Assembly: GCA_902770045.1 (NCBI GenBank)
Contig: CACXRO010000008.1
Coordinates: 1,412 to 65,411 of the forward strand
Direction of reading: 5' to 3'
DNA from: an uncultured bacterium
Lineage (GTDB): Bacteria; Verrucomicrobiota; Kiritimatiellia; RFP12; UBA1067
Length of the DNA: 64,000 nucleotides
Shown: positions 25,671 through 48,394 of the stretch, piece after piece
Layout of the letters: each line of letters opens with the position of its first letter
Position numbering within the stretch: the first letter of the stretch is position 1
Made by a program: the position numbers and the translations under genes
Notes under the pieces: model-generated
The model's database searches: none
The model's input: only the letters and a program-made list of their open reading frames with translations
What the model was told of the DNA's origin: nothing

Positions 25671-25696
25671 CACTTGCATAAACCCGACGTCTGCAG

Positions 25697-25722: not shown

Positions 25723-25726
25723 CCTT

Positions 25727-28475: not shown

Positions 28476-28500
28476 ACGCATTCCCCCTTTATTGACGCAA

Positions 28501-28509
28501 ATTATACCA
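28501..28509 (-). promoter_or_regulatory. extended -10 promoter (TGGTATAAT) for P1
   Basis: ATT-TGGTATAAT, leaving a leader of about 19 nt that contains the SD. Confidence 0.5.
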
Positions 28510-28556
28510 AATTGTCGCGCGCGCGCAAGGGCGGCGCGCGGCAGATTAGAGGCCCT

Positions 28557-31465: not shown

Positions 31466-32088
31466 CGCTCGCCTGCTCGGGGGCGGTGAAATCGGCCCCT
31501 CCCGACAAGTCGCCGTAGAAGACGTCGTTCACCGTGTCCCAGAGCCCGTATTTCGACACGGACGTCCCTTCGTTCGCGTCGGCGATTGTCGCCCGGCAGG
31601 GACGGAAGTTGCGGATGAGCACGCCGTCGTCATGGATCGTCATGCCATAGAGACGCGCGGTAAGCGGACGGTTGGAACCCATGTCGAGTCCCGTCGCGGT
31701 GTTGAGGAAGAAGACTGTCATGGACAGCGACGAAGTGAATGTCTGGTTCCCCCCGTTGTGGATCTTCGTGGGGATGCCGCCTTCCGCAGCTACCCAGAGC
31801 CGGCCGTTCTCGTTGCTGACGACGCAGCGTGTGTTTTGGTAGGCAGACCCCACCTGCATAGAGTCAATGCTCCCGCAGTTCAAGGCGAACTTGTATTGGC
31901 CGCCGACCCAAAGGCCCAGTCTTTGGGACTTGTCGCTGGAACTCGCTCTCTCGCCGACGATGCAGCTTGAGCCTGCCGGACGACTGGATGTACTCGACAA
32001 AAAAATCGAAGTTGGTCGTAGTCGTCGCGCTTGCGATCATAGCCGCAAAACACATAACACCACATGCGAGTTTTCTCACCATGTTCAT
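28557..32088 (-). pseudogene. secreted LamG protein P2 (two 1.3-kb LamG modules), reading frame broken after the signal peptide; ends ...PPGSVWYLR
   Basis: The promoter, SD (AGGAGAGG) and signal peptide (MNMVRKLACGVMCFAAMIASA...FVEYIQSSG) belong to ORF 31864..32088. The remaining 1147 aa are in the +1 frame (28557..32000). Removing one nt near 31974 restores VEYIQSSG-GSSCIVGE... Confidence 0.6.
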
Positions 32089-32158
32089 CTTGCCTCTCCT
32101 GTTTGGTTAAATCCCATTTCCAGTTCAGGCATACACCCTCCCCCGAGATTTTGTCAGT

Positions 32159-32167
32159 ATTTTACCA
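32159..32167 (-). promoter_or_regulatory. extended -10 promoter (TGGTAAAAT) for P2
   Basis: The reverse complement of attttacca, about 70 nt upstream of the ATG at 32088. Confidence 0.45.
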
Positions 32168-32187
32168 AACCCCCGCCGCCCTGCCAA

Positions 32188-32205
32188 CCCCTACCAAAGT
32201 AGGGG
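32188..32205. promoter_or_regulatory. palindrome CCCCTAC-CAAA-GTAGGGG between divergent promoters
   Basis: Perfect 7-bp arms lying between the P2 and histidine-kinase -10 elements. Candidate site for the adjacent LuxR-type regulator. Confidence 0.3.
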
Positions 32206-32227
32206 GTGGGAATGCCGCGCGGTTTTT

Positions 32228-32236
32228 TGGTATAAT
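32228..32236 (+). promoter_or_regulatory. extended -10 promoter (TGGTATAAT), leaderless configuration
   Basis: TATAAT-ACGGGCAA-ATG, an 8-nt spacer to the ATG at 32245. Confidence 0.55.
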
Positions 32237-32244
32237 ACGGGCAA

Positions 32245-34029
32245 ATGGTACCAAGAATGCGATTGCTGCGCCGGTTGGCGGCCATGGCGGCCGGATGTGC
32301 GCTGGCCTTGACGGTGAGCGCCGAGATGATGATTCCGCGCGGTCAGGCGACGACGCTGTCGGGCACGATCGTCGACGCCTTTCAGGACGAGTTTGACGCC
32401 AACTTCCGCTTCCTGGTGATCCAGAACGAATCCGGGACGCACTACGCGACCTCGCCCAGCGACGACATCAGCAAGGAATTCGTAGACGGACTGGTCGGCG
32501 CCGAAGTCACGATCGACGGAATCCGCGACCCGGCGTCGCCGCCCAATCGGAGGTTCCTCGGGCCGACGGTCTTCATCAAGGGGTCCAAGGACATCCACGT
32601 CGTCAAGCCCGCGCCGACCGACCCCTTCGCCGTTCCCGAAGTCAATCAGGACTTCACCACGAACCCCGCCGGCATCGCCTACCGCGGGCGTCACCGCATG
32701 CGCGGACGCGTTCTCGCCGTCTGGCAGGGTCGCTCGGCGCTGCTCGGAAGGGATGGCCAGGCCCCCTTCTCCCGCATCGAATTCGCCGACGGGGAAGCGC
32801 CGCGGTGCGGCTCGTTCATCGAGGCCGTCGGCTACCTCGAGACCGACCTGAGCAGCCTCAACCTCACCCGCGCCAGGTGGCGGCCGACAGAAGCGGTGGA
32901 GCAGCCGGAGCCAGCCTTGACGAACATCACAGCCAAGGACCTTTTCAGTTTCGATGGACGACCGGCCCTCAACGCCACCTTCTACGGCAAGGCTGTCCGC
33001 ATCGTCGGCACCGTCCTCAACCGGACTGAGGGAGGGCGCTTCCAGATCGACTCCGGCGACATGCCGGTCACCGTGGACGTGAGCGCGCTGCCCGCCGAGG
33101 CGCAGACGTCGGAGATCGGCGCCAAAGTCGAGGTCGTCGGCATCTGCATCCTCGACCTGTCGAACTGGCGGCCGAACGACATGTTCCCGCGCGCGCGCGG
33201 GCTCTTCGTCGCCGCCCGCACGCCGGACGACATCCACGTCCTCGCGCGCCCGTCCTGGTGGACGATGAAGCGCCTCCTCTCGGTCATCGTTGTCCTCGTC
33301 GGCGGGCTGGTCGCAATCATCATCTGGAACCTGTCGCTGCAGGCGCTCGTCGTCCGCCGCGCCCGACAGCTCTATAAGGCCGACCTCAAGCGCGCGACTT
33401 CCGAGCTGCGCGTCAAGGACCGCACACGCCTCGCGGTTGAGCTGCACGACGCGCTTTCGCAGAGCCTGACCGGCGTCTCGATGGAGGTCGAGGCGGCGAT
33501 TCGCCACGGCGTAGGCAATCCCGGCGAGATGACGCGCCATCTCGCCGTGGCGGACAAGGTGCTCAAGTCGTGCCGGAACGAGCTGAGGAACAGCCTCTGG
33601 GACCTGCGCAGCGACGCGCTGGAGGCGCGCGACCTCGGCGAGGCCATCCGCCGCACGCTGCTGCCGCACGTCCGCGACGTCGAGCTCAGGATCCGCTTCA
33701 ACGTGCCGCGCTCGCTGCTGACCGACAACGCGACGCACGAGATCCTGCGGATAATCCGCGAGCTCGCCGTCAACGGCATTTCGCACGGCGGGGCTAAGGC
33801 GATCCAGGTCGCCGGCGGCGTCGACGGCGGCAGGCTGCTCTTTTCAGTGCGCGACGACGGCGCCGGCTTCGACCCCGACACCGCGCCCGGCGTCCTGCAG
33901 GGCCACTTCGGGCTCGAGGGCGTGCGCGAGCGCCTGCGCCAGCTCAAGGGGTCGCTGGTCTTCGAGCGCATGCCCGGCGGAGGCATGAGGGCGACGGTCG
34001 CGATTCCGCTTCCGGGGAGGAAACCATGA
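32245..34029 (+). CDS. sensor histidine kinase (HisKA_3/NarX-type) with large periplasmic domain
   Basis: Signal/TM segment, about 330-aa periplasmic region, TM LLSVIVVLVGGLVAIIIW, H-box ELHDALSQSL, ATPase boxes IIRELAVNGISHG, DDGAGF and GLEGVRERL. Confidence 0.85.
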   Translation: MVPRMRLLRRLAAMAAGCALALTVSAEMMIPRGQATTLSGTIVDAFQDEFDANFRFLVIQNESGTHYATSPSDDISKEFVDGLVGAEVTIDGIRDPASPPNRRFLGPTVFIKGSKDIHVVKPAPTDPFAVPEVNQDFTTNPAGIAYRGRHRMRGRVLAVWQGRSALLGRDGQAPFSRIEFADGEAPRCGSFIEAVGYLETDLSSLNLTRARWRPTEAVEQPEPALTNITAKDLFSFDGRPALNATFYGKAVRIVGTVLNRTEGGRFQIDSGDMPVTVDVSALPAEAQTSEIGAKVEVVGICILDLSNWRPNDMFPRARGLFVAARTPDDIHVLARPSWWTMKRLLSVIVVLVGGLVAIIIWNLSLQALVVRRARQLYKADLKRATSELRVKDRTRLAVELHDALSQSLTGVSMEVEAAIRHGVGNPGEMTRHLAVADKVLKSCRNELRNSLWDLRSDALEARDLGEAIRRTLLPHVRDVELRIRFNVPRSLLTDNATHEILRIIRELAVNGISHGGAKAIQVAGGVDGGRLLFSVRDDGAGFDPDTAPGVLQGHFGLEGVRERLRQLKGSLVFERMPGGGMRATVAIPLPGRKP

Positions 34030-34646
34030 AGCCGATCACCCTGCTGCTCGTGGATGACCACGCCGTGATGCGCATGGGGCTCGCCTCGCTGCTGGAGACG
34101 TGCCGGGACGTCAAGGTCGTCGGCGACACCGGCGACGGCGAGAGCGCGGTCCGCATGGCGCTCCGGCTGCGGCCGGACGTCGTCGTCATGGACCTGGTGA
34201 TGCCGGAGATGGACGGCGTCGAGACGACGCGGCGGATTGTTGCGGAATGGCCGGAGGCGAACGTGCTCGTCCTCACCACCTTCGCGTCGTCGGACGAAAT
34301 CAGCCACGCGTTTGACGCCGGCGCCAAGGGCGCGATCCTCAAGAGTGCCGACCTCGACGGGCTGCTCGCGGCAATCAGGGACATCGCCGCGGGCAATCGA
34401 CACTGCTCCGCGGAGATCGAGCAGATCATGGCCGATGATCCGCCGGTCCCGAAGCTCTCGGCCCGACAGCAGGAGATCCTCAACTCGATCGTCCGCGGGC
34501 TCTCGAACCCCGACATCGCCCGTCAGCTCGGCATCAGTCTGCCGATGGTGAAGGAGCACCTCACCTCGCTTTTCGCGAAGCTCGGCGTCTCCAACCGCAC
34601 GGAAGCCGTCGCCGTCGCCCTCCGCAAGCAGCTCCTGAAGATCTGA
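34026..34646 (+). CDS. LuxR/NarL-family response regulator
   Basis: REC domain (LLVDDH, VVVMDLVMPEMDG, KGAILK) plus LuxR HTH (LSARQQEILNSIVRGLSNPDIARQLGISLPMVKEHL). ATGA overlap with the kinase stop. Confidence 0.9.
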   Translation: MKPITLLLVDDHAVMRMGLASLLETCRDVKVVGDTGDGESAVRMALRLRPDVVVMDLVMPEMDGVETTRRIVAEWPEANVLVLTTFASSDEISHAFDAGAKGAILKSADLDGLLAAIRDIAAGNRHCSAEIEQIMADDPPVPKLSARQQEILNSIVRGLSNPDIARQLGISLPMVKEHLTSLFAKLGVSNRTEAVAVALRKQLLKI

Positions 34647-34667
34647 CCCCCTTCTCCCCCGTCCGCG

Positions 34668-36650
34668 TCACTTCGCCCCGGCGGACGCGGGCAGAATCTC
34701 GCAAAGATGCACGTCGCACGGCGCTCCCGAGGAAAACGACGGCATCTTGAGCGTCTTCACCAGCCGGAGCTGCACCTCGTCCGCGTGCTCGCGGTAGTGC
34801 TGGAGGTTGTACGCGTGCTGGGTGTCGACGAGCGCGAAGAGCTTCGCGCCCGGATCCGCCTTGCGAACCGCCCTTACCACCGGCATCGGATCGCTGTTCG
34901 CCGGGAAGGTGGTCGCCGTGCGGATCGGCAGCGACATCAGCATCTGGTTGGAACGCTCGCCGACGACCACCGCGTTCTCCGGCACCAGCGCGGCAATTTC
35001 CTTCGCCGCCTGGGCGTGGAGGCGCGTCCCCGGACGCAGCAGCTCCGCCGCCGCCGCGCGCCAGCCCGGCACCGCGAGATACGCCGCCGCGAACATGAGA
35101 CCGGCACCGACCGCCACCGCGCCGCGCCGCACGACAGCGCGCCGCGGACCGAAGACTGCCAGCAGCGCCAGCGCCGAGACCACGGTCGAGACGGCAAGCG
35201 GCGCGAAATAGTTCCCCGCCGCCTTCTTCATGTACGGCGCGAGCTGCGCCGCCGGCCAGGCCGCGAACGCCACCGACCCCGCAACCGCCGCGGCGAACGC
35301 CCACGCCGCCGCCTTGACGGGCGTCGTGCCGCGTCCGTTCGCGAACGCCAGCACCGCCGTCAGCGCCAACGAAAACACGGCGACCACCGGCCAGGTCATC
35401 CCCCAGACGTTCTTCGCCGGCAGGTTGTACACCCGCGAATAGAACTGCTGCACGACCACAGGCGCGACGGACTGCATGGCGACGACCACCAGTCCCGCGG
35501 CGCAGAGCACCGCCACCGCGAACGGCATGAAGGCCCGGTCCTTCCAGCCAGGCTCCCGCCAGCCGCCGTCTGGCGCGGCGTCCGCCTCGAACTCCGCCAC
35601 CGCGGCGGACACGACCAGCGGCAGCGCCGCCACCGCCGGCAGGAAGTAGTGGGTGTAGATGGTGTTCATCACCGAAACCGCCGCGACGTAGGCGGGAACG
35701 GCAAGGAACAGGAGGAGATGCCCGTTCCAGCGCCGCAATAGCGCCGTCCTCAGCGCCAGCGCGAGCGGGACCGACAGAATCAGCGGCGCGAGCGGACCCA
35801 GCATCTGGATCGACGGGTCGCGCGGGAAGGACGAGACTCCCTTGAAGTGCGAGGCGAAGTCGAAGATCGGCGGCAGCGGATAGTGGGTGGTGGTGCGCCT
35901 GACGATCTCCCAGACCGAAAACCCGGAGCTTGCGGCCTCGGGCAGCAGCGACGCGGCCACGGCAAGTTTGCACACGAACACGGACGCGAGCGCCGCGGCC
36001 GCGAATACGACAAGCCGCCGCCAGCCTTCGCGAAATGTGCGGTCCTCCAGCGCCCCGGCCGCCGCGATCGGCAGCAGCACCCAGACCGAAGGCTTCACCA
36101 GCGAAATTGCCCCCGCGAGCGCGCCGGCGGCCGCCACCCGCCACCAAGCGCGTCCGGCCGCCAGCACGTACGCCGCCACGGTCAGCGCCGCGATGACAGC
36201 GTCGTTGCTGGCCGTCCGCTCGTATGCGAGCGTCATCGGCGTGAGCGACACCGCCGCGCAGAGCGCGAAGGCGAGTATGGCGCCCGCGCGCCGCGCGACA
36301 TGGCTGAACACGGCGAGCCACCCGCAGAGGAAGATCGCCAGGAACGGCAGCCGCCACGTCCAGGTCGAAAGCCCGAACGCGAGATGCGCCAGGTAGCTCA
36401 GCCAGTGCGTCAGCGCCGAGAAGCCGTAGGTGTACGCCTCGCTGCGCACCGGGTCCCAGAACTGCCCCCATAGAAACCTCTCCTTGCCGCCGTCGAGATA
36501 ATATCCCTCGTCCGTCGCGTTGTAGCCGTATTCCCACATCGACGGGACCCCGGGGTCGCACGCGATCCACGGCAGCCTCGCCGCGAGATAGATCGCCGCA
36601 AAGGCGAAGAAGAGCATCCAGAACCACCTGCGCCTATCGTCGGCTCCCAT
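34668..36650 (-). CDS. polytopic membrane glycosyltransferase, ArnT/PMT (GT39/GT83)-like
   Basis: 660 aa with 12 or more TM helices. N-terminal DEGYY loop motif and a soluble C-terminal domain. Overlaps the flippase stop by 17 nt. Confidence 0.55.
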   Translation of the reverse strand: MGADDRRRWFWMLFFAFAAIYLAARLPWIACDPGVPSMWEYGYNATDEGYYLDGGKERFLWGQFWDPVRSEAYTYGFSALTHWLSYLAHLAFGLSTWTWRLPFLAIFLCGWLAVFSHVARRAGAILAFALCAAVSLTPMTLAYERTASNDAVIAALTVAAYVLAAGRAWWRVAAAGALAGAISLVKPSVWVLLPIAAAGALEDRTFREGWRRLVVFAAAALASVFVCKLAVAASLLPEAASSGFSVWEIVRRTTTHYPLPPIFDFASHFKGVSSFPRDPSIQMLGPLAPLILSVPLALALRTALLRRWNGHLLLFLAVPAYVAAVSVMNTIYTHYFLPAVAALPLVVSAAVAEFEADAAPDGGWREPGWKDRAFMPFAVAVLCAAGLVVVAMQSVAPVVVQQFYSRVYNLPAKNVWGMTWPVVAVFSLALTAVLAFANGRGTTPVKAAAWAFAAAVAGSVAFAAWPAAQLAPYMKKAAGNYFAPLAVSTVVSALALLAVFGPRRAVVRRGAVAVGAGLMFAAAYLAVPGWRAAAAELLRPGTRLHAQAAKEIAALVPENAVVVGERSNQMLMSLPIRTATTFPANSDPMPVVRAVRKADPGAKLFALVDTQHAYNLQHYREHADEVQLRLVKTLKMPSFSSGAPCDVHLCEILPASAGAK

Positions 36651-37851
36651 TTCCCCCTCCTCCGTTGATTCTGCATTCGCACCGCGCGGCCACGTAGTTG
36701 ACCGCCGCCATGAAGATGGTCGAGACCGACTTCGCCGCGCAGAGCCAGCCGAGCCCGAACGGAACCGCCGCGAACACGAGCGCCAGCACGACCGGCTTCT
36801 CCACCGCCTCGAGCTTCAGCACCGTGTCGGTGCGGCCGCGCACGTAGAGGAGGTTCTGGAACAGGCACTGCGCCGGCTCGAACGCCGCGCCAGCGGCGAG
36901 GATGCGCAGGTACGGAACGCAGACGAGCCACTGCTCGCCAAGGACGACCCGGACGACCGGTTCGGCAAAGACCGCAAGCAGCGCAAGCGCCGGCACGAGC
37001 AGCAGAAGCGAAAGCGCAGAAAGCCGCTCGTACGCGCGCAGCAGCTCGCGCGGCGAGTTCTGTCTCTCCGCGAGCAGCGGATAGTTCACGTTGATCATCG
37101 TCTCCTGCACGAACTGCGGACCGATCGCCGTCCAGGACGCCGCGCGCGCAAACGCGCCAGTCGCAGCCGCGCCGAAGAACCTGCCGGTGGCGAAGGTGTA
37201 GACATGGTAGCAGACGGCGTTGACCGCCGACGAGCAGAGATGCCGCCAGCCGAACGAGAAGAACGAGCGGAACGACGAGCGGGAGAACGCGAGGCGCGGA
37301 AGCCAGCGCGTAACGGCGACGAGCAGCGCGAGATTGACGACATGCCAGGCGAGCCCCTGCCACACCAGCGCCCACGCGCCGAAGCCGCGCCACGCGAGCG
37401 CCACGCCGACGGCCGCCGAGACCGCGACGGACGCGAACAGCACCGCCGACTGCGCCGCAAACCTGAGGTTCACCCGCAAGAGCGCCTGCGGCACCGACGC
37501 CATCGCGCCGAAGACGAGCCCGGCCGAGACCACGCGCGTGATCGCCGTAAGTTCCGGCATCCCGAAAAACGCGGCAATCGCCGGCGCCGCGGCGAAGAGG
37601 ACGAGGTAGCACGCGGCCGCCGCCGCGAGCGAAAACCAGAAGACGGTCGAGGCGTCCTCGTCGGTTCGGTCGAGCTTGCGCATGAACGCGAGCGAGAAGC
37701 CGCAGTCGACGAACATCTCGGAGACGGCGATGAACACCGCGAGCACGCCCACGAGTCCGAAGTCGGCCGGCGTGAGGAGCCGCGCGAGGACGATGCCGAT
37801 GGCGAACTGCAGCCCCCTGACCGCGATCTTGCCGGCTGCCGTCCAGGCCAT
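36634..37851 (-). CDS. polysaccharide flippase (Wzx/MOP family)
   Basis: Internal start MAWTAAGKIAVRGLQFAIGIVLARLLTPADFGLVG, a typical Wzx N-terminus, followed by about 12 TM helices. Confidence 0.7.
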   Translation of the reverse strand: MAWTAAGKIAVRGLQFAIGIVLARLLTPADFGLVGVLAVFIAVSEMFVDCGFSLAFMRKLDRTDEDASTVFWFSLAAAAACYLVLFAAAPAIAAFFGMPELTAITRVVSAGLVFGAMASVPQALLRVNLRFAAQSAVLFASVAVSAAVGVALAWRGFGAWALVWQGLAWHVVNLALLVAVTRWLPRLAFSRSSFRSFFSFGWRHLCSSAVNAVCYHVYTFATGRFFGAAATGAFARAASWTAIGPQFVQETMINVNYPLLAERQNSPRELLRAYERLSALSLLLLVPALALLAVFAEPVVRVVLGEQWLVCVPYLRILAAGAAFEPAQCLFQNLLYVRGRTDTVLKLEAVEKPVVLALVFAAVPFGLGWLCAAKSVSTIFMAAVNYVAARCECRINGGGGNGSRR

Positions 37852-37871
37852 GCCGCGGGCGCTCTCGTCCC

Positions 37872-38777
37872 TCAACCCCACCGCGCCCCCTTCGCAAGCA
37901 TGCTGCGGCGGAGCCGAGCGAAGAACGCCGCCCTGAGAATCGAATCGGGGAGCGGCAGGAGGGAGAGGACCGGCTGGAGCAGCGCCGCCGCGGACCACAT
38001 CAGCCTAAGCCGCGCCGTCGGCCAGCGCGGGTCGGCGGCCACGATGCTAGCCGCGGCGGCGAAGCGGTACCAGATGTCGAACTGCGGCAGCCGCCCGCGG
38101 TCGCGTCCGTCGAAGCGCTGGCCGATGCCGATGATGTGCATGACGCAGTCGGGACGGCCCGATCTGAACGCCAGACGGGGACAGTCCCGGATGACGTTCC
38201 ACTTCGCCGGCAGCATTCCGCAGGTGTCGTGGCAAAGGGAGTTGAGGATGTCCTGGTCGACGTACTTGAGCACGCCCTCGCGGGCGGTGAACTCCACCGC
38301 GCGCCCGAGGAAGCGGCTCTCGCGCAGGCGCCTGAGGTTCATAAGCATCACGCCGCTGCAGCCGTACATGAGCGGGTCGAAGCCCGGGTTGATCCGCCGC
38401 TGCCACGCCGCCGCCTCGCGCCGGGTGGAGGGAATGTCCCGCACCCACATCACCTCGCGCGATTCGTCCCGGAGCTCCCAGAGCTCGCAGACGTCGGCGA
38501 ACCAGAGCGCGTCGACGTCGGAGTAGACCACCCAGTCGCAGTCCGGCAGCAGCTCCGGGAGGTAGAGGCGGAGGAACGCCATCGGCGAGCCCTTGTAGGT
38601 GCCGAAGTCGCGGCGGATGCGCTCGGCGAGCGCGGCGTCGGAGCCGAACTCGTGGAACTCGAGGCGCGATGGGTCAGAGCACGCGGCGGCGATGGAGGCG
38701 CGCGCTGCGGCAAGTCCGGGCAGATATCTGCCGTCCGCGACGAGCGCAACGTGTATCCTCTCCGCCGCCATCTTCAT
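37872..38777 (-). CDS. glycosyltransferase family 8
   Basis: IHVALVADGRYLPG, YLRLYLPELLP..VVYSDVDALW (DxD), GVMLMNLRRLR and DQDILN. Confidence 0.75.
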   Translation of the reverse strand: MKMAAERIHVALVADGRYLPGLAAARASIAAACSDPSRLEFHEFGSDAALAERIRRDFGTYKGSPMAFLRLYLPELLPDCDWVVYSDVDALWFADVCELWELRDESREVMWVRDIPSTRREAAAWQRRINPGFDPLMYGCSGVMLMNLRRLRESRFLGRAVEFTAREGVLKYVDQDILNSLCHDTCGMLPAKWNVIRDCPRLAFRSGRPDCVMHIIGIGQRFDGRDRGRLPQFDIWYRFAAAASIVAADPRWPTARLRLMWSAAALLQPVLSLLPLPDSILRAAFFARLRRSMLAKGARWG

Positions 38778-38929
38778 TCAATCACCCCACCTACCATTCC
38801 CATGGCAGGACCATCCGCACGCGCGACGCTTTTCCATAATGGCCACGACAAATTCACACTCCGTGTCGCCGCATACGCGACGACTGTAATCGGCTGCGAT
38901 GGCACGAAGATCCGTTTCATACACCGCAT

Positions 38930-38938
38930 AGTATACCA
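38930..38938 (-). promoter_or_regulatory. extended -10 promoter (TGGTATACT) for GT8-Wzx-ArnT-like operon
   Basis: The reverse complement of agtatacca gives ATTA-TGGTATACT, about 150 nt upstream of the ATG at 38777. Confidence 0.4.
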
Positions 38939-38989
38939 TAATCCGCAGGGCTTGAGGCATTGTAGGCGCCGCGGAGAGTCTGACGATGA

Positions 38990-39121
38990 TTAGATCAGGT
39001 GGATGGCCGTGCCCGGGGCGCGCTGCGTCTCCACCTTTCCGTAGGAGAGGAAGCCCGCATCGGTCTGCGTCTTATAGTCCGCCTGGGCATGGGCTTCCGA
39101 AGTCGCGCCGTTGCGGATGCG
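38990..39121 (-). pseudogene. orphan 3'-terminal fragment of a P1-like LamG gene
   Basis: Aligns to 26751-26882. The fragment reads IRNGATSEAHAQADYKTQTDAGFLSYGKVETQRAPGTAIHLI-stop; P1 reads IRNGATSEAHAQADYKTQTDAAFLAYGPVETQRLAGSVYFIR-stop. There is no upstream coding continuation. Confidence 0.8.
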
Positions 39122-39190
39122 AAGCTCGGCGTCTCCAACCGCACCGAAGCCGTCGCCGTCGCTCTCCGCAAGCAGCTCCTGAAGATCTGA
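39119..39190 (+). pseudogene. orphan 3'-terminal fragment of the LuxR response-regulator gene
   Basis: These 72 nt match 34575-34646 with 2 mismatches and encode AKLGVSNRTEAVAVALRKQLLKI-stop. They join directly to the LamG fragment at a shared GCG. Confidence 0.85.
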
Positions 39191-39212
39191 CTTCTCGCCC
39201 TGGCGCCGGGCA

Positions 39213-40319
39213 TCAGACCTTGATGAAGGCGTTCTTGCGGTAGAGGAAGTAGAGGATGAGCCAGCCGACGAGGAAGGTGGTGGCTCCCCACGCCAGCATC
39301 GACCAGGCGCCGGACCATTCGCAGAGCCCGCTGAAGCAGTACTTCCGGAGGGCGCCGACGACGCCGGTCATGCCCAGCATGTAGATTGCGATCGAGTTCA
39401 TGCCGACCACGCGGAGCGGGAAAGTCCACTTCCGCCAGCCCTTCACGTCGACGATCCAGTAGAAGGCCGCCAGCATCGCCAGCGAATACGCCGCCGTCGC
39501 CAGCACGAAGGAACTCGTCCACAGGCGCTTGACGACGGGCATCCCGAGGACATAGACGAAGAACAGCGCCGCGGCGAGCGCTGCCAGCGCCGCGCCAAAC
39601 AGCACCGCCGCCTTCCGCGCGCCCGGGAGCGACTGCGAGCGGAGCAGGTCGCCGGACATCACGCCTGCGAGCGCCAGCGCCGTCGCCGCCGGCACCGAGA
39701 AGACCGACTCGGGGTCGTAGAGCTTCTCCAGGATGTGGTTCGGCATCAGCGTGCGGTCAAGCCACGAGACGAGGTTGAACTCCATCGAGTAGGTGTCGGC
39801 GCCGGCCTGCGCGCCGGGCGCGGCGAAGAAGTTCAGCACCGCCCAGTAGCCGATCAGGATCGCCGCGGCGACGGCGCCGCGGACCAGGTTCCTCTTCACG
39901 TGCATCGAGATCAGCGCCGCCGCGCCCCAGGCAAGGCCGATCTGGCCGAGGACGCTCGGGATGCGGAAAGTCGGCTTGAACGCGAGGATGCCGCCGCTGG
40001 ACAGCCCCAGGAGAAACAGCACCAGCACCCGCACCAGCACCTTGCGGTGGATCTGCCACGGCGTCCGCCCGCGCGCCTCCTGCGAGGCGAGGGAGAACGG
40101 CCACGACACCCCCGCCAGAAAGAGAAACAGCGGAAAGATCGTGTCGTGGTGGGCGAGCCCCGCCCACGGCACATGGCGCATCTGCTGGACGAGCCAGCAC
40201 GAGTCGTCGCAGCCGAGCCCCAGGCACAGCCCGGAGACGATTGCCGCGCCTCCGGTGATGAAAAACATGTCGAAGCCCCGCAAGGCGTCGAGCGACATCA
40301 ACCGATCCTTTTTCTCCAT
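39213..40319 (-). CDS. membrane acyltransferase-like protein (DUF5009 / HGSNAT-like)
   Basis: Internal start MEKKDRLMSLDALRGFDMFFITG, about 10 TM helices. SD GGGAAGGCAAGGA. Confidence 0.55.
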   Translation of the reverse strand: MEKKDRLMSLDALRGFDMFFITGGAAIVSGLCLGLGCDDSCWLVQQMRHVPWAGLAHHDTIFPLFLFLAGVSWPFSLASQEARGRTPWQIHRKVLVRVLVLFLLGLSSGGILAFKPTFRIPSVLGQIGLAWGAAALISMHVKRNLVRGAVAAAILIGYWAVLNFFAAPGAQAGADTYSMEFNLVSWLDRTLMPNHILEKLYDPESVFSVPAATALALAGVMSGDLLRSQSLPGARKAAVLFGAALAALAAALFFVYVLGMPVVKRLWTSSFVLATAAYSLAMLAAFYWIVDVKGWRKWTFPLRVVGMNSIAIYMLGMTGVVGALRKYCFSGLCEWSGAWSMLAWGATTFLVGWLILYFLYRKNAFIKV

Positions 40320-40354
40320 GTCCTTGCCTTCCCTTTCAGTTCCCGCCAGCCGCG

Positions 40355-41257
40355 TCACTTCGCCTTGCCCTGGCGCGCGCAGAGCCGCAGGAACGCGACT
40401 GCCGCGGCGACAAGCGGGTGGCGCACGGAGAGCGGAAACGCCGCGAGCGCCTCTTTGACGCTCGCATCCGCGATGTACTCGCGCCAGCGGTGCCGCGCCT
40501 TCAGGAGCTCCAGCGCGGAAAAGACGCAGCTCGCCTCGCAGTAACGCCAGAGCGAGCCGCCGCAGCGCTCGTCGAGCCGGCGTCGGAAGTCGAGCGCGAG
40601 GAACTTGTAGTCCCAGTTGCGTTCGCCGCGCCAGCCGGTGGCGAGATTGCCGTCCGGCCGCGGACGGTAGACGTAGAGCCGGTCGGGAATCGACACCGCC
40701 TTCTCCGCGAACGCCGCGCACGCGGAAAGAAACGCGGCATCCTCGAAGAAGGTCATCCGCTCGTCGAACCTGAGCGCGTGGCGCTCGAGGAACGACCGCC
40801 TGAAGGCGCAGCGCCAGACCTGTCCCGGCTGCTTGCGCGCGGCAAGCTCGCCGCCGCGGTTCCAGCGCCGCACGTCGTCCATCGAATAGCCGAAGAAGGC
40901 GGGCAGGTAGCGCGCGCGCACCGCGTCGGCGCCGTCGTCGAGCGCGGCGGGGAAGTCCGGCCCGCCCTCGTAGCCGAAGAAGCAGAGGTCGGCGCCGCTT
41001 TCCGCGAGCGCGGCAACTGGGCGCGAGAGGAAGTCAGGCCGCGCCAGGTCGTCGGCGTCGCAGAAGAACACGTATTCGCCGCGCGCGCGGTCGAGGCCGC
41101 GGTTGCGCGCCCAGGAAGGCCCGTGGCCGTCCGGGTCGTCGACGACGACAATCTCCGACTCGCCGGAAAAGGCGGCACGGGCCGCCTCCACCGAGCGAAG
41201 CGTCTCCGGCAGCGTCGCTTCGGCGCGGTGCGCGGGGATGATTACGCTCGCATCCAT
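40355..41257 (-). CDS. glycosyltransferase family 2
   Basis: Internal start MDASVIIPAH. Motifs EIVVVDDPDGHG and YVFFCDADD (DxD). The track ORF 40355..44167 is a spurious extension. Confidence 0.75.
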   Translation of the reverse strand: MDASVIIPAHRAEATLPETLRSVEAARAAFSGESEIVVVDDPDGHGPSWARNRGLDRARGEYVFFCDADDLARPDFLSRPVAALAESGADLCFFGYEGGPDFPAALDDGADAVRARYLPAFFGYSMDDVRRWNRGGELAARKQPGQVWRCAFRRSFLERHALRFDERMTFFEDAAFLSACAAFAEKAVSIPDRLYVYRPRPDGNLATGWRGERNWDYKFLALDFRRRLDERCGGSLWRYCEASCVFSALELLKARHRWREYIADASVKEALAAFPLSVRHPLVAAAVAFLRLCARQGKAK

Positions 41258-41283
41258 GCTCGCCCTTCCGCCCTGCCGCGCGC

Positions 41284-43059
41284 TCACGCGCGCTTGCGCA
41301 CCTTGGCGATGATCTTCGACGCCCCGAGGTTCTTCATGCCCAGGAGGAGCATTATCCTGCCGAGCGGATGCCTGGACTCCGCCCGCGTCTCCACGATCTC
41401 GATCCCCTCCTTGTCGCAGAGCGCCTGGAAGTCCTTGAGCGTGATGAGGTGGATGTTGGGGGTGTCGTACCACTCGAACGGCAGCTGCTTGGAGACGGGA
41501 AGCCGCCCCTTGAACATCAGCGTCAGCCGGATCCGGTAGGCCGCGAAGTTGGGGAAGGTGACAATCGCCTCGTCGGCGATGCGCAGCGCCTCGTGCAGCA
41601 GCCCGCGCGGATTGCGCACCTCCTGGAGCGTGTCGGAGACGATGGCGGTAGAGTAGTGGCGGTCCGGGATCATGTCGATGCCGTCGTCGTCCACGTCGTC
41701 GTACAGCACGTTGTGGCCGTCGGCGAGCGCCTCCTCGAACTTCTCCACCTCGATCTCCACGCCATCGCCCTTTACGTTGCGGGTCTTGCGCAGCACGTTG
41801 AGGAGCGAGCCGTCGCCGCAGCCGATGTCCAGGACGCGCGCGCCGCGCGGAACCATCCGGACGATGTTCGCGTAGAGCCGCTCCTGCCACTTCATCACCT
41901 TCACCTCGCGGGAAGAGAGGAAGCCGCCCACGAGCTTGGAGAGCTCGTCGATGTGGGTGAGGAAGGCGTCGTGGCCGATGCCGTAGTCGAGATGGCAGTA
42001 GGAGACGTCCTTGCCCGCCTTCATCAGCGAGGCCACCATCTCGCGGCTCTGCCACTCGGTGAAGAGCACGTCGCCGCCGTAGGAGACCACGAGGCACTTC
42101 GCCTTCACGCGGGCGAAGGCGGCGTCGAGCGAGCCGTAGGCCTTGGCCGGGTCGGCCTCGTCCATGGAGCCGACGATGTGCAGGTAGCTGTTGGCGTCGA
42201 AGCGGTCGACGAACTTCTTCGCCTGGTAGTCGAGGTAGCTCTCGATCTGGAAATACGTCTTGAACAGGCGGTCGCGCTCGGCGCGGTCCGCCGCGGGCGC
42301 GTTGACGAAGTTCTCCTGCAGGCGGCGGTCGAACTTGCCCTGCAGGTGCTCGCGCGAGAGGTAGGAGATGTGGGCGAGCTGGCGCGCGGAGGCAAGGCCG
42401 TTCTTCGGCCCCTTGCCGTCGCCGTCGAGGTAGTAGTCGCCGTTCTTCCAGAGCGGGTTCTCGGTGATGGCGTTCTTGCCCATCACGTCGAAGGCGAGCG
42501 CCTGGGTGTTGAGCGAGGGCGAGGTGGCGACGAGGATCAGCCGGTCCATGTCGTCCGGGAAGCGCGTCGCCCAGTTGACGGCCTGCATGCCGCCGTAGCT
42601 GCCGCCGATGAGCGCGGCGAGGCGCTTCACGCCGATCTGGGCGAGGAGCATGCGGAAGACGTCCACCGCGTCGTCGAAGCTGTAGCGCGGGAAGGAGGAG
42701 CCGTAGGGGCGGCCGGTGTCGGGATTGATGGACATCGGACCGGTGGTGCCGCTGCAGCCGCCGAGCACGTTGGCGCAGACGACGTGGTAGCGGTTGGTGT
42801 CGATTGCGCGGCCGGGGCCGACCATCCCCTCCCACCAGCCGCTGGGCTTGGTCTCGCCGGGTCGGATGCCGGCGACGTGCGCGTCGCCGGTGAGCGCGTG
42901 GCAGATGTAGACGACGTTGTCGTCCTTCATCGGCGCACCGCACTCCTCGTAGGCGACCTCGACCTCCTTCAGCACGCCGCCATAGGCGAGCCTGAGCTCC
43001 CCCTCGGGCAGCTCCAGCTTCAGCCTCTTCGGCTCGACTATGCCTACGCCTGTGTCCAT
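41284..43059 (-). CDS. metX: homoserine O-acetyltransferase fused to MetW
   Basis: MetX: ICHALTGDAHVAG and GGSYGGMQA (nucleophile elbow). C-terminal MetW-like methyltransferase fold: RVLDIGCGDGSLL and NIHLITLKDF. Confidence 0.8.
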   Translation of the reverse strand: MDTGVGIVEPKRLKLELPEGELRLAYGGVLKEVEVAYEECGAPMKDDNVVYICHALTGDAHVAGIRPGETKPSGWWEGMVGPGRAIDTNRYHVVCANVLGGCSGTTGPMSINPDTGRPYGSSFPRYSFDDAVDVFRMLLAQIGVKRLAALIGGSYGGMQAVNWATRFPDDMDRLILVATSPSLNTQALAFDVMGKNAITENPLWKNGDYYLDGDGKGPKNGLASARQLAHISYLSREHLQGKFDRRLQENFVNAPAADRAERDRLFKTYFQIESYLDYQAKKFVDRFDANSYLHIVGSMDEADPAKAYGSLDAAFARVKAKCLVVSYGGDVLFTEWQSREMVASLMKAGKDVSYCHLDYGIGHDAFLTHIDELSKLVGGFLSSREVKVMKWQERLYANIVRMVPRGARVLDIGCGDGSLLNVLRKTRNVKGDGVEIEVEKFEEALADGHNVLYDDVDDDGIDMIPDRHYSTAIVSDTLQEVRNPRGLLHEALRIADEAIVTFPNFAAYRIRLTLMFKGRLPVSKQLPFEWYDTPNIHLITLKDFQALCDKEGIEIVETRAESRHPLGRIMLLLGMKNLGASKIIAKVRKRA

Positions 43060-43067
43060 TGGCGCGT

Positions 43068-43076
43068 ATTATAGCA
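43068..43076 (-). promoter_or_regulatory. extended -10 promoter (TGCTATAAT), leaderless configuration
   Basis: TATAAT-ACGCGCCA-ATG, an 8-nt spacer to the ATG at 43059. Confidence 0.55.
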
Positions 43077-43094
43077 TAAACCGGCGCCGAATTA

Positions 43095-43103
43095 TGGTAT
43101 AAT
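43095..43103 (+). promoter_or_regulatory. extended -10 promoter (TGGTATAAT) for hydE-mnmA
   Basis: Back-to-back with the metX promoter, 18 nt apart across CCGGCGCCG, and 29 nt before the ATG at 43133. Confidence 0.5.
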
Positions 43104-43132
43104 TCACGCCCAAGACGCAGAAGACGCAAAAG

Positions 43133-44188
43133 ATGACGACGAAGAAGACGGCCGCCGCCGACCACGCATCGCTGGTCCGGATGCTCCGCGACGAGGATTT
43201 CGCCTCGCTCGCGGCGCGCGCCTACGCGCTCAAGACCGAGGTTTGGGGGAAGCGCGTCGCCCTGCGCGGACTCGTCGAAGTCTCCAACGTCTGCGCCCGG
43301 AACTGCCTCTACTGCGGCATCCGCCGCGGCAACGCCAAGACGGCGCGCTACCGGATGGACGAGGACGAAATCCTCGCCGCCGTCGCCTGGGCCGCCGAGA
43401 ACCGCTACGGCAGCGTCGTGCTGCAGTCCGGCGAGACGGACGACGAGCCCAGCGCGCTCTTCTTCGAGCGCGTCCTCCGGCACATCCGCGCCGAACTCGG
43501 CGACGGCCTCGGCATCACCCTCTCGCTCGGCGAACGGCACCGCGACGTCTACCGCCGCTGGCTCGACGCCGGCGCCAACCGATACCTGCTCAGGATCGAG
43601 ACTTCCGACCCGGAGCTGTTCGCGCGCATCCACCCGGCGGAGCAGTCCTGGCGCACGCGCCTCGAATGCCTGCGCACGCTCCGGGACCTCGGCTACGTCG
43701 TCGGCTCCGGGGTGATGATCGGCCTGCCGGGGCAGGACGTCGACTCGCTCGCGCGCGACATCGAGTTCCTCCGCGACGAAGGCGTAGACATGGTGGGGAT
43801 GGGGCCGTACATCGCCCATCCCGACACCCCGCTCGCCGCCTATGCGCCGCGCCTCGAGCGCGAGCAGCTCCTCGACCTCTCGCTGCGCATGATCGCCGCG
43901 GTCCGCCTCGCCATCCCCGACGCCAACATCGCCGCCACCACCGCGCTGCAGGCAATCGACCCCGAGGGGCGCGAAAAGGGACTCCTCGCCGGCGCGAACG
44001 TCGTCATGCCGAACATCACCCCGCGGAAATACCGCGGCGACTACCTGCTCTACCCCGGCAAGCCCTGCACCGAAGAGGACTCCGAGCTCTGCCGCGGCTG
44101 CCTCGAGCGGCGCGTAAAGTCGATCGGCGAGGAGATCGCCTGGGGCGAGCGGTGCGACCCCGTCCACTTCGAGAGGAGGACGCGGTGA
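43133..44188 (+). CDS. hydE: [FeFe]-hydrogenase maturase HydE (radical SAM)
   Basis: Close match to the remembered T. maritima HydE along its length: VSNVCARNCLYCGIRRGN..RYRM, LQSGE, TLSLGE, AGANRYLLRIET, GSGVMIGLPGQ, MVGMGPYIAHPDTPLA, ATTALQ and GANVVMPNITP..YR..Y.LYPGK. Confidence 0.8.
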   Translation: MTTKKTAAADHASLVRMLRDEDFASLAARAYALKTEVWGKRVALRGLVEVSNVCARNCLYCGIRRGNAKTARYRMDEDEILAAVAWAAENRYGSVVLQSGETDDEPSALFFERVLRHIRAELGDGLGITLSLGERHRDVYRRWLDAGANRYLLRIETSDPELFARIHPAEQSWRTRLECLRTLRDLGYVVGSGVMIGLPGQDVDSLARDIEFLRDEGVDMVGMGPYIAHPDTPLAAYAPRLEREQLLDLSLRMIAAVRLAIPDANIAATTALQAIDPEGREKGLLAGANVVMPNITPRKYRGDYLLYPGKPCTEEDSELCRGCLERRVKSIGEEIAWGERCDPVHFERRTR

Positions 44189-45255
44189 AGGTCGCGGTCG
44201 GGCTTTCCGGCGGCGTCGACTCGAGCGTCGCCGCGCTCATCCTGAAGGAACAGGGGCACGAGGTGGTCGGCGTCACCATGAAGCTCTGGAGCGGCGCCTA
44301 CCGCGGCGGCGAGCGGGACGCGTGCTTCGGTCCCGGCGAGGCGGAGGACATCGCCCGCGCCGAAGCGCTCACCCGTGCGCTCGGCATCGGCTATCAGGTG
44401 GTCGACTGCTCGCGCGAATACGAACGCGTCATCGTGGGGATGTTCCGCGAGACCTCGCTGCGCGGCGAAACCCCGAATCCCTGCGTCTTCTGCAACGCCG
44501 CGTTCAAGTTCGGGCTGCTGCCGCGGCTGGTGCGCGAATCCGGCGTCGCGTTCGACCGCTTCGCCACCGGACACTACGCGCGGATCGTCCAGTCCGGCGG
44601 CAGGCTCGCCGTCGCCCGCGCGGCCGACGAGAAGAAGGACCAGAGCTACTTCCTCTACCGGCTTTCGCAGCGCCAGCTCGCGGAGGCAATGTTTCCGCTC
44701 GGCGAACTGGCCAAGCCCGAGGTGCGCCGCATCGCCGCGGAACATTCCCTTTCCTCGGCGGACAAGGCGGACTCGCAGGACTTCTACTCCGGCGACCGCG
44801 CCGAGCTCGTCGGCGCCGAGCCGCGCGAGGGCGAGATCGTCGATCTTTCAGGCAGGGTCCTCGGCCACCACCGCGGCTACTGGAACTTCACCGTCGGCCA
44901 GCGCAAGGGACTCGGCGCGTTCGGTCCCGAGCCGATGTACGTGGTGCGCATCGACGCGTGCCGCAACCAGGTGGTGCTCGGCCGGCGCAACGAGGCGATG
45001 ACGCGGGAGTTCCGGGTCGCGAACCTCGTGTGGCAGGCGCGCGAGCCTGGCGGAAGACCGTTCGCCGCGCGGGTGAAGATCCGCTCCACCGGCGCGCCGC
45101 TCGGTCCGGTGGAGTTCGACGGCGAGACCTGCCGCGCGCCCGGAGAGGGGCTCTTCGGCGTCGCCCCGGGCCAGTCCGCCGTGTTCTACGACGAGAGCGG
45201 CGCCATCCTCTGCGGCGGCGTGATTGAACCGCCAACCACAAACCACGAAATATGA
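44185..45255 (+). CDS. mnmA: tRNA 2-thiouridine(34) synthase
   Basis: GTG start overlapping the hydE stop (GTGA), with SD GAGAGGAGGA. PP-loop VGLSGGVDSSVAA, NPCVFCN, ATGHYAR and KDQSYFL. Confidence 0.9.
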   Translation: MKVAVGLSGGVDSSVAALILKEQGHEVVGVTMKLWSGAYRGGERDACFGPGEAEDIARAEALTRALGIGYQVVDCSREYERVIVGMFRETSLRGETPNPCVFCNAAFKFGLLPRLVRESGVAFDRFATGHYARIVQSGGRLAVARAADEKKDQSYFLYRLSQRQLAEAMFPLGELAKPEVRRIAAEHSLSSADKADSQDFYSGDRAELVGAEPREGEIVDLSGRVLGHHRGYWNFTVGQRKGLGAFGPEPMYVVRIDACRNQVVLGRRNEAMTREFRVANLVWQAREPGGRPFAARVKIRSTGAPLGPVEFDGETCRAPGEGLFGVAPGQSAVFYDESGAILCGGVIEPPTTNHEI

Positions 45256-45261
45256 TATAAT
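45253..45261 (+). promoter_or_regulatory. extended -10 promoter (TGATATAAT), leaderless configuration
   Basis: The TGA of the mnmA stop doubles as the TG motif. TATAAT-CCACCAGT-ATG gives an 8-nt spacer to the lgt ATG at 45270. Confidence 0.55.
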
Positions 45262-45269
45262 CCACCAGT

Positions 45270-46061
45270 ATGTTCCCTGACCTCATAGACCTCGGCTTCC
45301 TCCACATCCGCACCTACGGCGCGTGCATGGCGACCGGCTTCATCGTCTGCTGGTGGCTGGTGGAGCGCCTGAGCGGACGCAAGGACCTTTCCAACCTGAT
45401 GATGTACCTGATGGTCGCCGGCGTCGTCGGCTCCCGCGCCGCCTATGTAATCGAGCACTGGCAGGCCGAGTTCGCCGCGGATCCTCTCCGCGTCATCCGC
45501 GTCGACCAGGGCGGGCTTATGTTCTACGGCGGCCTCATCCTCGCGCTCGTCGTGTTCTTCGCCTGGTGCATCGTCAAGCGCGAGCGCACGCTCGCCCTCG
45601 CCGACCTGCTCGCCGTGGTGGTGCCGCTCGGCCACGCCTTCGGCCGCATCGGCTGCTTCTTCTACGGCTGCTGCTACGGGCGCGACTCCGACGCCTGGTG
45701 CGCAGTCGTCTTTCCGCCCGGCAGCCCAAGCTGGTTCGAGCACGGCCGCCGCGCAGTCGGGGTGCTGCCGACCCAGCTATTCGAGGCGGCGGCGCTCCTC
45801 GCGCTCTTCGGACTGCTCATGCTGGCGCGCTCGCGCGCCAAGCGCGGCGGCTGGGGCGCCGGCCTCGTGACCGGACTCTACCTCGTCGGCTACGCGGCGA
45901 TCCGCTTCGGCATCGAGTACCTGCGCGGCGATCCGCGCGCGGCGGTGGGCCCGCTCTCCATCTCGCAGGCGATCTCGGTCGGCATGGCCCTGCTCGGCGC
46001 CGTGATCATCGCCGTTGCCTGGATGCGCGGCCGCGCCGCCGCGGAGGGCGCCGCGCGATGA
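45270..46061 (+). CDS. lgt: prolipoprotein diacylglyceryl transferase
   Basis: IRTYGACMATGF, GGLMFYGGLI and GHAFGRIGCFFYGCCYG. Confidence 0.9.
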   Translation: MFPDLIDLGFLHIRTYGACMATGFIVCWWLVERLSGRKDLSNLMMYLMVAGVVGSRAAYVIEHWQAEFAADPLRVIRVDQGGLMFYGGLILALVVFFAWCIVKRERTLALADLLAVVVPLGHAFGRIGCFFYGCCYGRDSDAWCAVVFPPGSPSWFEHGRRAVGVLPTQLFEAAALLALFGLLMLARSRAKRGGWGAGLVTGLYLVGYAAIRFGIEYLRGDPRAAVGPLSISQAISVGMALLGAVIIAVAWMRGRAAAEGAAR

Positions 46062-47047
46062 GCGTCCGCATCATCATCGGCGACGACGACTACCTGGTCG
46101 ACGAGGCCGCGCGCAAGACGGTCGGCGACGGCGTCGGGCTCGAGCTCATCGACTCGATGACCGCCACCAACGAGGACCTCCAGCTCGCCGACCTGCGGCG
46201 CGCGGACGAGTCGTTCTCCACGCCGCCGTTCCTCGACCCGAAGAAGGTCACGTGGTGGCGCAACGTCCACTTCCTCCCCGGCGGCAAGTCGTCCGCCGCG
46301 GTCAAGGAGGCGCTCGAAAAGTTCGCGAAGAAGGTCGCCGCGCTCGCGCCAACGATGCCGCCGAACCAGCACTTCATCCTCTCCGGCCCCCACCTCCTGA
46401 AGAACTCGGCCTTCGCCAAGGCCCTCGCCGGCGTCGCCGAGCTGGTCTCCTTCGGCGGCGGCAAGCCGTGGGAGCGCCGCAGGGCCGCGGTCGCGCGCGC
46501 AGTGGAGCTTGCGGAGGAGGAGGGGCTCGCCTTCGCCGACGGCGTGGCGGAGAAGTTCGTCGCCGTCGTCGGCACCGACTCGCGCTCCATCGCCGGCGAA
46601 GTCGCGAAGATGCGCACCTACCTCGGGCCCGGCGCGAAGAAGATCGAGGCGAGGGACGTCGATGCGGTGACGAGCCCGGGAGTGAAGGACGAGCCGGAGA
46701 TCTGGGCGGTGACCGACGCAATCGGCAAGCGCGACGCCGCGGCGGCGATCGCCGCCCTCGAGCCGTTCGCGCTCATGAACGGGTTCGCCGTGTTCATGAC
46801 CGGCGTGATCGAGAAGTTCTTCCGCCAGCTGGTGGACCTGAAGCGCGGCGGGATCCCGGAGGACATGAACCCGTTCGTCGCGAAGAAGAGCGCCGCGTTC
46901 CTCGCCAACTGGTCCCTCCTCGAGCTGCGCTCCGCTCGCGCACGCTTCATCGCGCTGCGCGAGAAGGTGGTCTCCGGCACCACGGCCGGCGATGTGCTGG
47001 TCGTCACCGAACTGCTGCGCGCAGTTCGCCGGGCGCCGAGACGGTGA
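46058..47047 (+). CDS. holA: DNA polymerase III delta subunit-like
   Basis: Internal start MSVRIIIGDDDYLV (ATGA overlap with the lgt stop). 329 aa with delta-like features (PFLDPKKVTWW, the D..IW.V.DA...RD...A motif). Confidence 0.55.
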   Translation: MSVRIIIGDDDYLVDEAARKTVGDGVGLELIDSMTATNEDLQLADLRRADESFSTPPFLDPKKVTWWRNVHFLPGGKSSAAVKEALEKFAKKVAALAPTMPPNQHFILSGPHLLKNSAFAKALAGVAELVSFGGGKPWERRRAAVARAVELAEEEGLAFADGVAEKFVAVVGTDSRSIAGEVAKMRTYLGPGAKKIEARDVDAVTSPGVKDEPEIWAVTDAIGKRDAAAAIAALEPFALMNGFAVFMTGVIEKFFRQLVDLKRGGIPEDMNPFVAKKSAAFLANWSLLELRSARARFIALREKVVSGTTAGDVLVVTELLRAVRRAPRR

Positions 47048-47648: not shown

Positions 47649-47658
47649 GTCCGTACTC

Positions 47659-48372: not shown

Positions 48373-48385
48373 CCTGGATGCGCGG

Positions 48386-48394
48386 ATTATACCA
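48386..48394 (-). promoter_or_regulatory. extended -10 promoter (TGGTATAAT)
   Basis: AAATTA-TGGTATAAT, 13 nt before the ATG at 48372. It overlaps the last codons of the DUF2851 gene. Confidence 0.5.

Follow-up and report, generated by a model that had tools for sequence, protein, structure and literature searches.

A 200-nucleotide stretch in a rumen Kiritimatiellae glycan locus as the probable deletion scar of a sensor-regulator and LamG cassette

Spontaneous deletions between short direct repeats, which proceed by short-homology-dependent illegitimate recombination or by replication slippage, were reportedly described in lacI by Albertini et al. in 1982. Homology-facilitated illegitimate recombination takes place in naturally transformable bacteria and is described for Acinetobacter and Streptococcus pneumoniae. 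In Salmonella, the junctions of spontaneous deletions carry short direct-repeat microhomologies, with a verified cut-off of at least 8 bp, and short direct repeats of about the size met here are the usual substrate of spontaneous deletions in bacteria (PMC3411829). The kind of event proposed below is a known one, an ordinary deletion remnant in a hypervariable locus of glycan and surface-protein genes.

The window, that is the whole stretch of 64,000 nucleotides that was analysed, covers positions 1412-65411 of contig C8 of a metagenome-assembled genome. Our results make it probable that 200 nt of it are a non-functional deletion scar, left by a cassette of sensor-regulator and LamG genes that was once present at an insertion site named here site 1; a second cassette lies intact at site 2. 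Under this reading, the scar (or relic) and its surroundings are composed of the following features:

38990..39121, minus strand: A', last 43 codons and stop codon of a lost LamG gene of the P1 family, tail type T2, in frame
39119..39128, no strand: deletion junction GCGAAGCTCG, from comparison of the relic with the regulator, P1, L025 and L027
39119..39190, plus strand: C', last 23 codons and stop codon of a lost NarL/LuxR-type response-regulator gene
39191..39212, no strand: original 3' flank of the lost regulator gene, reaching the stop codon of the DUF5009 gene
39213..40319, minus strand: DUF5009 / NagX-like membrane acyltransferase gene (368 aa, true start 40319)
stop codon at 40355, minus strand: GT2
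38778..38989, minus strand: non-coding leader and promoter region of the GT8-Wzx-660aa operon (promoter scan)
34668..38777, minus strand: segment D, between the intact cassette and the relic (660-aa gene, Wzx, GT8)
37872-38777, minus strand: GT8 glycosyltransferase, complete from 38777, backbone gene
36634-37881, minus strand: Wzx-type flippase (Pfam; P0241, 415 aa), backbone gene
34668-36650, minus strand: 660-aa protein with no family assigned, arrived with insertion 2
26751..34646, no strand: intact cassette at site 2 (P1, P2, histidine kinase, response regulator)
34026-34646, plus strand: response regulator (Response_reg and GerE)
32245-34029, plus strand: histidine kinase (HisKA_3/HATPase_c)
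28557-32000, minus strand: P2, frameshifted at about 31975
26751-28481, minus strand: P1 (576 aa)
25727-26656, minus strand: CDF cation exporter (Pfam/NCBIfam)

The original prediction had recognised in the relic the 3' ends of P1 and of the LuxR-type regulator gene, and both matches were recovered, far beyond chance, when 38900-39300 was searched by blastn in the complete assembly (87 contigs, 2.27 Mb, 64.7% GC). The LamG half (39023-39131) matched the P1 3' end (26784-26892) with 86.2% identity over 109 nt (E 1e-30), and the regulator half (39119-39191) matched 34575-34647 with 97.3% identity over 73 nt (E 4e-29). The alignments therefore hold under formal scoring, including the claim that 39119-39190 resembles the last 72 nt of the regulator gene with two mismatches, and no better copy of either half was found by blastn elsewhere in the 2.27-Mb assembly. 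A repeat search returned the two pairs as direct repeats (26784-26892 / 39023-39131, 86%; 34575-34647 / 39119-39191, 97%). The two differences between C' and the intact regulator copy are each synonymous. Read on the minus strand, 38990-39121 keeps the P1 frame and has TAA (38990-38992) at the position of P1's TAG; over the full 132 nt its identity to the window's P1 is 74.2%, as its final 11 codons are those of another tail type. The order of the halves, a LamG 3' end on the minus strand followed by a response-regulator 3' end on the plus strand, is that of the outer ends of the intact cassette, and both halves have the orientation expected after removal of the interior.

P1 has about 38 near-full-length homologues (P0001-P0038, 56-96% identity), which carry PF13385 (Laminin_G_3) and whose last 20 residues belong mainly to three recurrent types:

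T1: ...AYGPVETQR..GSVYFIR, the type of the window's P1
T2: ...SYG[KP]VETQRAPGTAI[HY]LI, without the terminal Arg, in at least 14 intact homologues
T3: ...AYGPVENQGGVGLVIYVR, with the end GLVIYVR

The relic peptide is of type T2. It is identical at 44 of 45 positions to each of four proteins (P0007, P0018, P0019 and P0020), each single mismatch being a polymorphism present in other intact proteins, so that A' has no relic-specific amino-acid change; the corresponding count against the window's P1 is 35 of 45. At the nucleotide level, the 132 nt of the relic are 95.5% and 90.9% identical to the intact T2 genes of L027 and L025, respectively, and 94.7% (by eye) to that of genome RUG14537. The resemblance of 38990-39121 to the last 44 codons of P1, stop codon included, is thus genuine, but the tail that had been described as decayed is not: the LamG half is an alternative tail allele, T2, free of decay, rather than a degraded P1 tail. 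A difference in divergence between the two halves, for which gene conversion had been suggested, is also real (34 mismatches in 132 nt for the LamG half versus 2 in 72 nt for the regulator half, Fisher p = 1e-5). Allele classes suffice to account for it, since the LamG tail is polymorphic in classes (70-95% identity between LamG 3' ends across alleles) and the regulator is uniformly conserved (93-100% for the 3' ends of its eight alleles). For run X1, gene conversion of the relic with the intact regulator was also considered and rejected, the X1 contig being identical to the window's intact regulator copy, with 0 differences.

By eye against the printed alignments, at most four relic substitutions are rare or absent in the other compared alleles: the codons ACT and TAT of A' and, in C', a C at 39145 and a T at 39163 (the latter also in L036). 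All of them are synonymous in the former frames and are for this reason most likely older than the deletion; the scar itself is probably young. In RUG14537 a window-like P1 body (98%) is combined with a T2 tail, which places breakpoints within the last ~100 nt. Past the stop codon, the 25 nt of relic flank (38965-38989) weakly resemble the flanks of other T2 genes. Taken as a whole, the short C-terminal tails of these exported LamG proteins represent discrete, recombining types, and the T2 type, without terminal Arg, is relevant to tests of the proposed C-terminal heptapeptide tag as a sorting signal.

At the join, gapped local alignment places the switch of homology at 39119-39121, where the two pieces abut at GCG(AAGCTCG). 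A junction on a shared GCG within imperfect homology, as first proposed, is what is obtained if the parent was close to the window's P1 or to L027 (overlap of 3 nt, 8 of 10 positions matching). It does not apply to an L025-like parent: at the join, L025 has GAGCTTCGC in its intact T2 allele, as the relic does, and such a parent gives a perfect 10-nt overlap with the regulator gene (CGAGCTTCGC) and moves the end of A' to 39128. The microhomology at the junction may consequently be a perfect one of 10 bp.

Comparison of strains, made from protein look-ups in public assemblies, distinguished four states of the locus. In the backbone state (L044), the order is radical-SAM, hydrolase/MetW, GT2, GT8, Wzx and CDF, with genes that abut or overlap. 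This contig aligns with window positions 49442..40355, 38772..36651 and 26615..24673 at 89-94% identity, and the gaps of the alignment identify window 38773-40354 (site 1) and 26616-36650 (site 2) as insertions. In the second state, site 1 is empty and site 2 occupied: L040 and L042 have 660aa-RR-HK at 99.65% identity, and their GT2 stop lies one base ahead of the GT8 start, like in L044. In the third state, site 1 is intact. L028 has the order GT2-DUF5009-23 nt-RR-HK at 96% identity and no relic; its positions 1-2339 correspond to window 41457..39119 and continue as window 34647..32898, and its intact regulator gene is followed by TGACTTCTCGCCCTGGCGCCGGGCATCAGACC, as in the window. The same arrangement was found in three further Logan runs (L047, L049 and L050) and in contig C22 of the GTDB genome RUG14537 (L061). 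The bovine-gut samples with the L028-type arrangement are SRR24639054, SRR29908376, SRR29908346 and SRR34723488. All these intact-site strains share 96-99% nucleotide identity with the window and have a complete regulator and kinase at the position of C', with a 3' flank (TGACTTCTCGCCCTGGCGCC...) identical to that of the window and adjoining the same DUF5009 gene. The fourth state, in which site 1 is scarred and site 2 occupied, is that of the window and of near-identical strains.

As the regulator is alive at this exact position in sister strains, the regulator half is the stump of that gene. The search in related strains for an intact second cassette thus succeeded for its kinase-regulator side (L028, L047, L049, L050 and RUG14537), and this pair, together with the empty-site strains, supports the original prediction that a cassette once occupied the relic site and lost its interior. 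The contigs of L028, L047, L049 and L050 stop at the 5' end of the kinase gene. RUG14537 has a site-1 cassette that consists of RR-HK, a 451-aa ORF, which in L025, L030 and L036 corresponds to ORFs with AAA_14/DUF4143, and, as last gene, a 1278-aa exported protein that is not of the P1 type; the start of its contig C22 does not encode the P1 N-terminus. Since the content of the site-1 cassette varies in this way, the deletion may have removed more or less than 7.7 kb. No contig has an intact T2 LamG gene immediately ahead of the GT8 leader of 213 nt, the T2 genes found by the GTDB scan (RUG10963 and RUG14537) lie in other contexts, and junction 23-25-mers had no match in two JGI metagenome scans. 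Empty, intact and scarred states of site 1 all circulate in cattle-gut populations.

Several observations concern the genes that surround the scar. The leader of GT8 contains a sigma-70-like site (-35 at 38986-38981, -10 at 38964-38959), a TGGTATACT motif and a 57-nt element, and it is absent (38778..38989) in L044 and L040; being absent from backbone strains, it is part of the inserted island. The promoter-like element of ~57 nt with TGGTATACT (38899-38958) is also present at C57:6515-6571 (84%, E 1e-10), upstream of unrelated genes, as well as in RUG10963 and RUG14537 (78-83%). GT8 was considered as a pseudogene with an in-frame stop codon (38778-38780); this was rejected, the 301-aa protein beginning with a normal GT8 N-terminus and the upstream 60-codon ORF being unrelated leader. 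The DUF5009 gene is lacking in backbone strains and is part of the inserted island that also held the lost cassette. The DUF5009 product matches NF046061 (NagX) with E 2e-67, below the cut-off, and the sources name its homologues as DUF5009, Kiritimatiellae. The longest ORF (39213-40721, 502 codons) runs into the GT2 gene, but the alignment with relatives begins at residue 135, where an ATG has GGGAAGG as ribosome-binding site; the true protein accordingly has 368 aa. The 92% match between G019 and residues 2-119 of the false extension arises from the overlap of this extension, in another frame, with the conserved GT2 gene.

On the side of site 2, the 5' end of P2 (31864-32088) lacks, at 31975, 74 nt (CACAGTGGATGG...ATACCGCC) that are present in L027 and in L037 and L038, the last two being 99.85-99.98% identical to the window. 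With these 74 nt, P2 is a single ORF of 1202 aa including a signal peptide; in their absence, the signal peptide and the remainder of P2 are in different frames. Either P2 is frameshifted in the window's genome or the segment was dropped by the assembly. Wzx and the CDF exporter overlap by 4 nt in backbone strains and hence form one operon there; with insertion 2, they are now 10 kb apart and CDF has gained a 5' end of ~14 codons and its own promoter (26616-26656, 36634-36650). Finally, an intergenic element of ~240 nt, seen in L025 at 2871-3110 and 4316-4571, has about 20 matches in the window's genome (70-88%), of which two, 24321-24568 and 53492-53728, are within the window.

From these data, we propose that in a species of rumen or cattle-gut Kiritimatiellae the backbone operon GT2-GT8-Wzx-CDF offers two alternative insertion sites to a module made of a NarL-type two-component system and one or two exported LamG-type proteins. 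Site 1 lies between GT2 and GT8; where occupied, it has a DUF5009/NagX-like gene and then the cassette, whose regulator has its 3' end toward DUF5009 and whose LamG gene would have its own toward the GT8 promoter. Site 2 lies between Wzx and CDF. The lineage of the window would have possessed a site-1 cassette with a T2-tailed LamG gene and would have lost all that lay between the last 43 LamG codons and the last 23 regulator codons. The loss probably occurred by a RecA-independent deletion between short direct homologies, GCGAAGCTCG in the regulator and the same or a similar decamer in the LamG gene, illegitimate recombination at short homology being the natural mechanism. A functional cassette, whose LamG gene has a T1 tail, stands at site 2, 4.3 kb from the scar. 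The relic itself suggests that a T2 LamG gene, next to the GT8 leader, closed the lost cassette, and the size of this cassette would have been ~7-8 kb. The order of events is an inference: a single genome may or may not have carried the two cassettes intact at the same time, and site 2 may have been filled, through recombination with an L040-type strain, only once the scar was in place.

The locus might also have arisen in one step, by homology-facilitated illegitimate recombination between an L028-like recipient and a donor with the order [T2 LamG 3' end]-GT8 leader-GT8-Wzx-660aa-RR-HK. One end would have been anchored in RR-HK and the other joined at GCGAAGCTCG in the resident regulator, duplicating its last 73 nt, and no interior would have been deleted here. 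Indeed, the window differs from L028 by a single insertion of 4544 nt bounded by a 73-nt direct repeat (C...C'), and cassette flanks are freely swapped between strains. We nevertheless regard such an origin as unlikely. In the donor, GT8 would have to be preceded by a T2 LamG gene and the 660-aa gene followed by a regulator, that is, there would be cassettes on both sides of segment D, so that the two-cassette state is merely moved to another genome; this requirement makes the scenario less parsimonious than a deletion. Moreover, the recipient would have to be without GT8-Wzx, which are backbone genes, and neither such a recipient nor such a donor was seen.

The original prediction had also considered the cassette as a duplicating unit, a view that our data do not support. 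No genome with two intact cassettes was found. Among 117 genus representatives, with the best two candidates per genome scored, RUG10963 and RUG14537 alone have the kinase-regulator pair at 95% identity besides the window's genome, one copy each. The site-2 pair of the window is 96.5% identical to the site-1 pair of L049, compared with 99.0% for the adjoining DUF5009 flank, which argues against a recent duplication within the genome. In a test for segmental duplication, the LamG half of the relic was 74% identical to the neighbouring P1 and 95.5% to the T2 gene of another strain. With LamG tails of different classes, the site-2 cassette does not appear to be a recent copy of the site-1 cassette.

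The kinase-regulator pair was found at 93-97% identity among many different neighbours. There are at least three contexts on the regulator side (the 660-aa gene, the DUF5009 gene and a 416-aa/DegT/helicase region) and at least five on the LamG side (CDF, NadA, GH28, hydrolase-NusA and another LamG gene). The middle slot by the kinase gene, beside the divergent promoter (28557-32244 in the window; compared in L025, L030, L031, L036 and L061), varies too: it is filled by P2 in some strains and in others by an ATPase (AAA_14/DUF4143), by a toxin gene with a HipA domain, preceded by a small ORF, or by a Gly_rich_2 protein of 1500 aa. Homology between contexts stops at, or within ~25 nt of, the two stop codons. 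A promoter region of ~170 nt (32042-32209) stays directly before whichever exported protein comes next. Neither integrase nor transposase was present among the Pfam and NCBIfam matches (kinase, regulator, LamG-type and glycan genes), and the repeat search gave no inverted or terminal repeats bracketing the cassette or the relic; nothing in these searches points to a mobile element, be it IS, transposon, ICE or MITE. The locus is recombination-prone and flexible. It is quite improbable, in our opinion, that the two-component and LamG module is more specifically a relocating unit, bounded nearly exactly by the stop codons of its outward-facing genes and provided with an exchangeable middle slot and T1/T2/T3 tails, the relic being then either a footprint left by an excision or exchange, which might be programmed, or a T2-tail reservoir.

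It is very unlikely that the relic has been kept for a function, either as a silent T2-tail donor for gene conversion (a C-terminal tag switch) or as a 63-codon plus-strand ORF (38999-39190). A' keeps its frame and its stop codon, all its residues occur in living alleles and, as RUG14537 illustrates, LamG tails are mosaic between strains. However, such a fragment is single in the genome, 132 nt are too short for an absence of decay to mean anything, and the T1 tail is kept on P1 in all window-type strains (99.85-100% identical); in the silent-cassette test, the P1 T1 3' end was unchanged in these strains and, in L037 and L038 as in the window, matches the relic at 86.2%. The ORF on the plus strand is open and ends in the last 23 residues of the regulator, but this part of the GerE helix-turn-helix would not be able to fold as a DNA-binding unit, gene callers made no call over the relic in four assemblies, and open antisense frames are common at high GC, of which this frame is most likely a by-product. 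A structured RNA was ruled out, with no Rfam match in the relic at E <= 1. No terminator-like site was found in the relic, and the sole promoter-like site of the promoter scan lies just outside it (38959-38986, GT8 side). We infer that the scar is without function.

The junction was confirmed at the assembly level. The relic stretch of 291 nt is present at 100% identity, with gene order kept, in four assemblies (L037, L038, L039 and L041, i.e. ENA ERZ27280189, ERZ28613671 and ERZ27280221 and Logan ERR3220201) that share 99.85-100% identity with the window over 8-21 kb. From the source study, the Logan contigs of X1 (7559 nt) and X2 (3125 nt) show 0 differences over 38600-39600, and unitigs from two further studies (X4 record 18, X5 record 27) span 39119-39121. 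In total, 20 runs from ~13 studies contain the stretch, with labels, where given, of bovine gut or gut metagenome. At the join, the halves have no common k-mer and each differs from its intact copy, so that a de Bruijn chimera cannot yield this junction; its identity in four independent assemblies likewise speaks against an assembly error. Although the window comes from a metagenome-assembled genome of 87 contigs and the locus contains repeats, an assembly chimera or a chance similarity can practically be dismissed in view of the E values of 1e-30 and 4e-29, of a relic that differs from both intact copies with at most 10 nt common at the join, and of a junction that is identical in at least four independent assemblies from different studies and assemblers.

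To conclude, the deletion scar is a textbook by-product of genome flux, and its value is that of a marker of locus evolution: in an uncultured rumen species of Kiritimatiellae, two neighbouring sites of a glycan-export operon gain and lose a LamG module regulated by a two-component system and exchange it with each other. Compared with silent cassettes of the pilS or vls type, the relic is likewise a promoterless 3' fragment of a surface-protein gene near an expressed gene, with tails that are mosaic between strains, but it is a single fragment and not an array, with no evidence of conversion in strains that are 99.85-100% identical. To our knowledge, such systems are never fused to a regulator fragment, as is the case here. 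With homology-facilitated illegitimate recombination, the locus shares a microhomology junction beside a long homologous anchor, a configuration in which a short stretch can be duplicated; in contrast to it, a donor with a two-cassette arrangement would be required here, and we rank this rival below the deletion. The locus also resembles the remnants of island loss in flexible glycan loci of the O-antigen or capsule type, with its glycosyltransferase/flippase operon, its strain-specific insertions and its empty, occupied and scarred states in one species. Unlike these islands, its cargo is a two-component system with exported LamG proteins instead of sugar-modifying genes, and it is without integrase, transposase, tRNA gene or terminal repeat as a marker. 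With respect to the deletions between short direct repeats obtained in experiments, the difference is that the event is deduced from a natural population and that more than one parent allele, and hence more than one length of the microhomology, comes into consideration. The likeness is close in other respects: two sites in direct orientation share 3-10 nt, all that lay between them is lost, one copy of the homology is left, and the size of several kb is in the range reported for deletions at short repeats.
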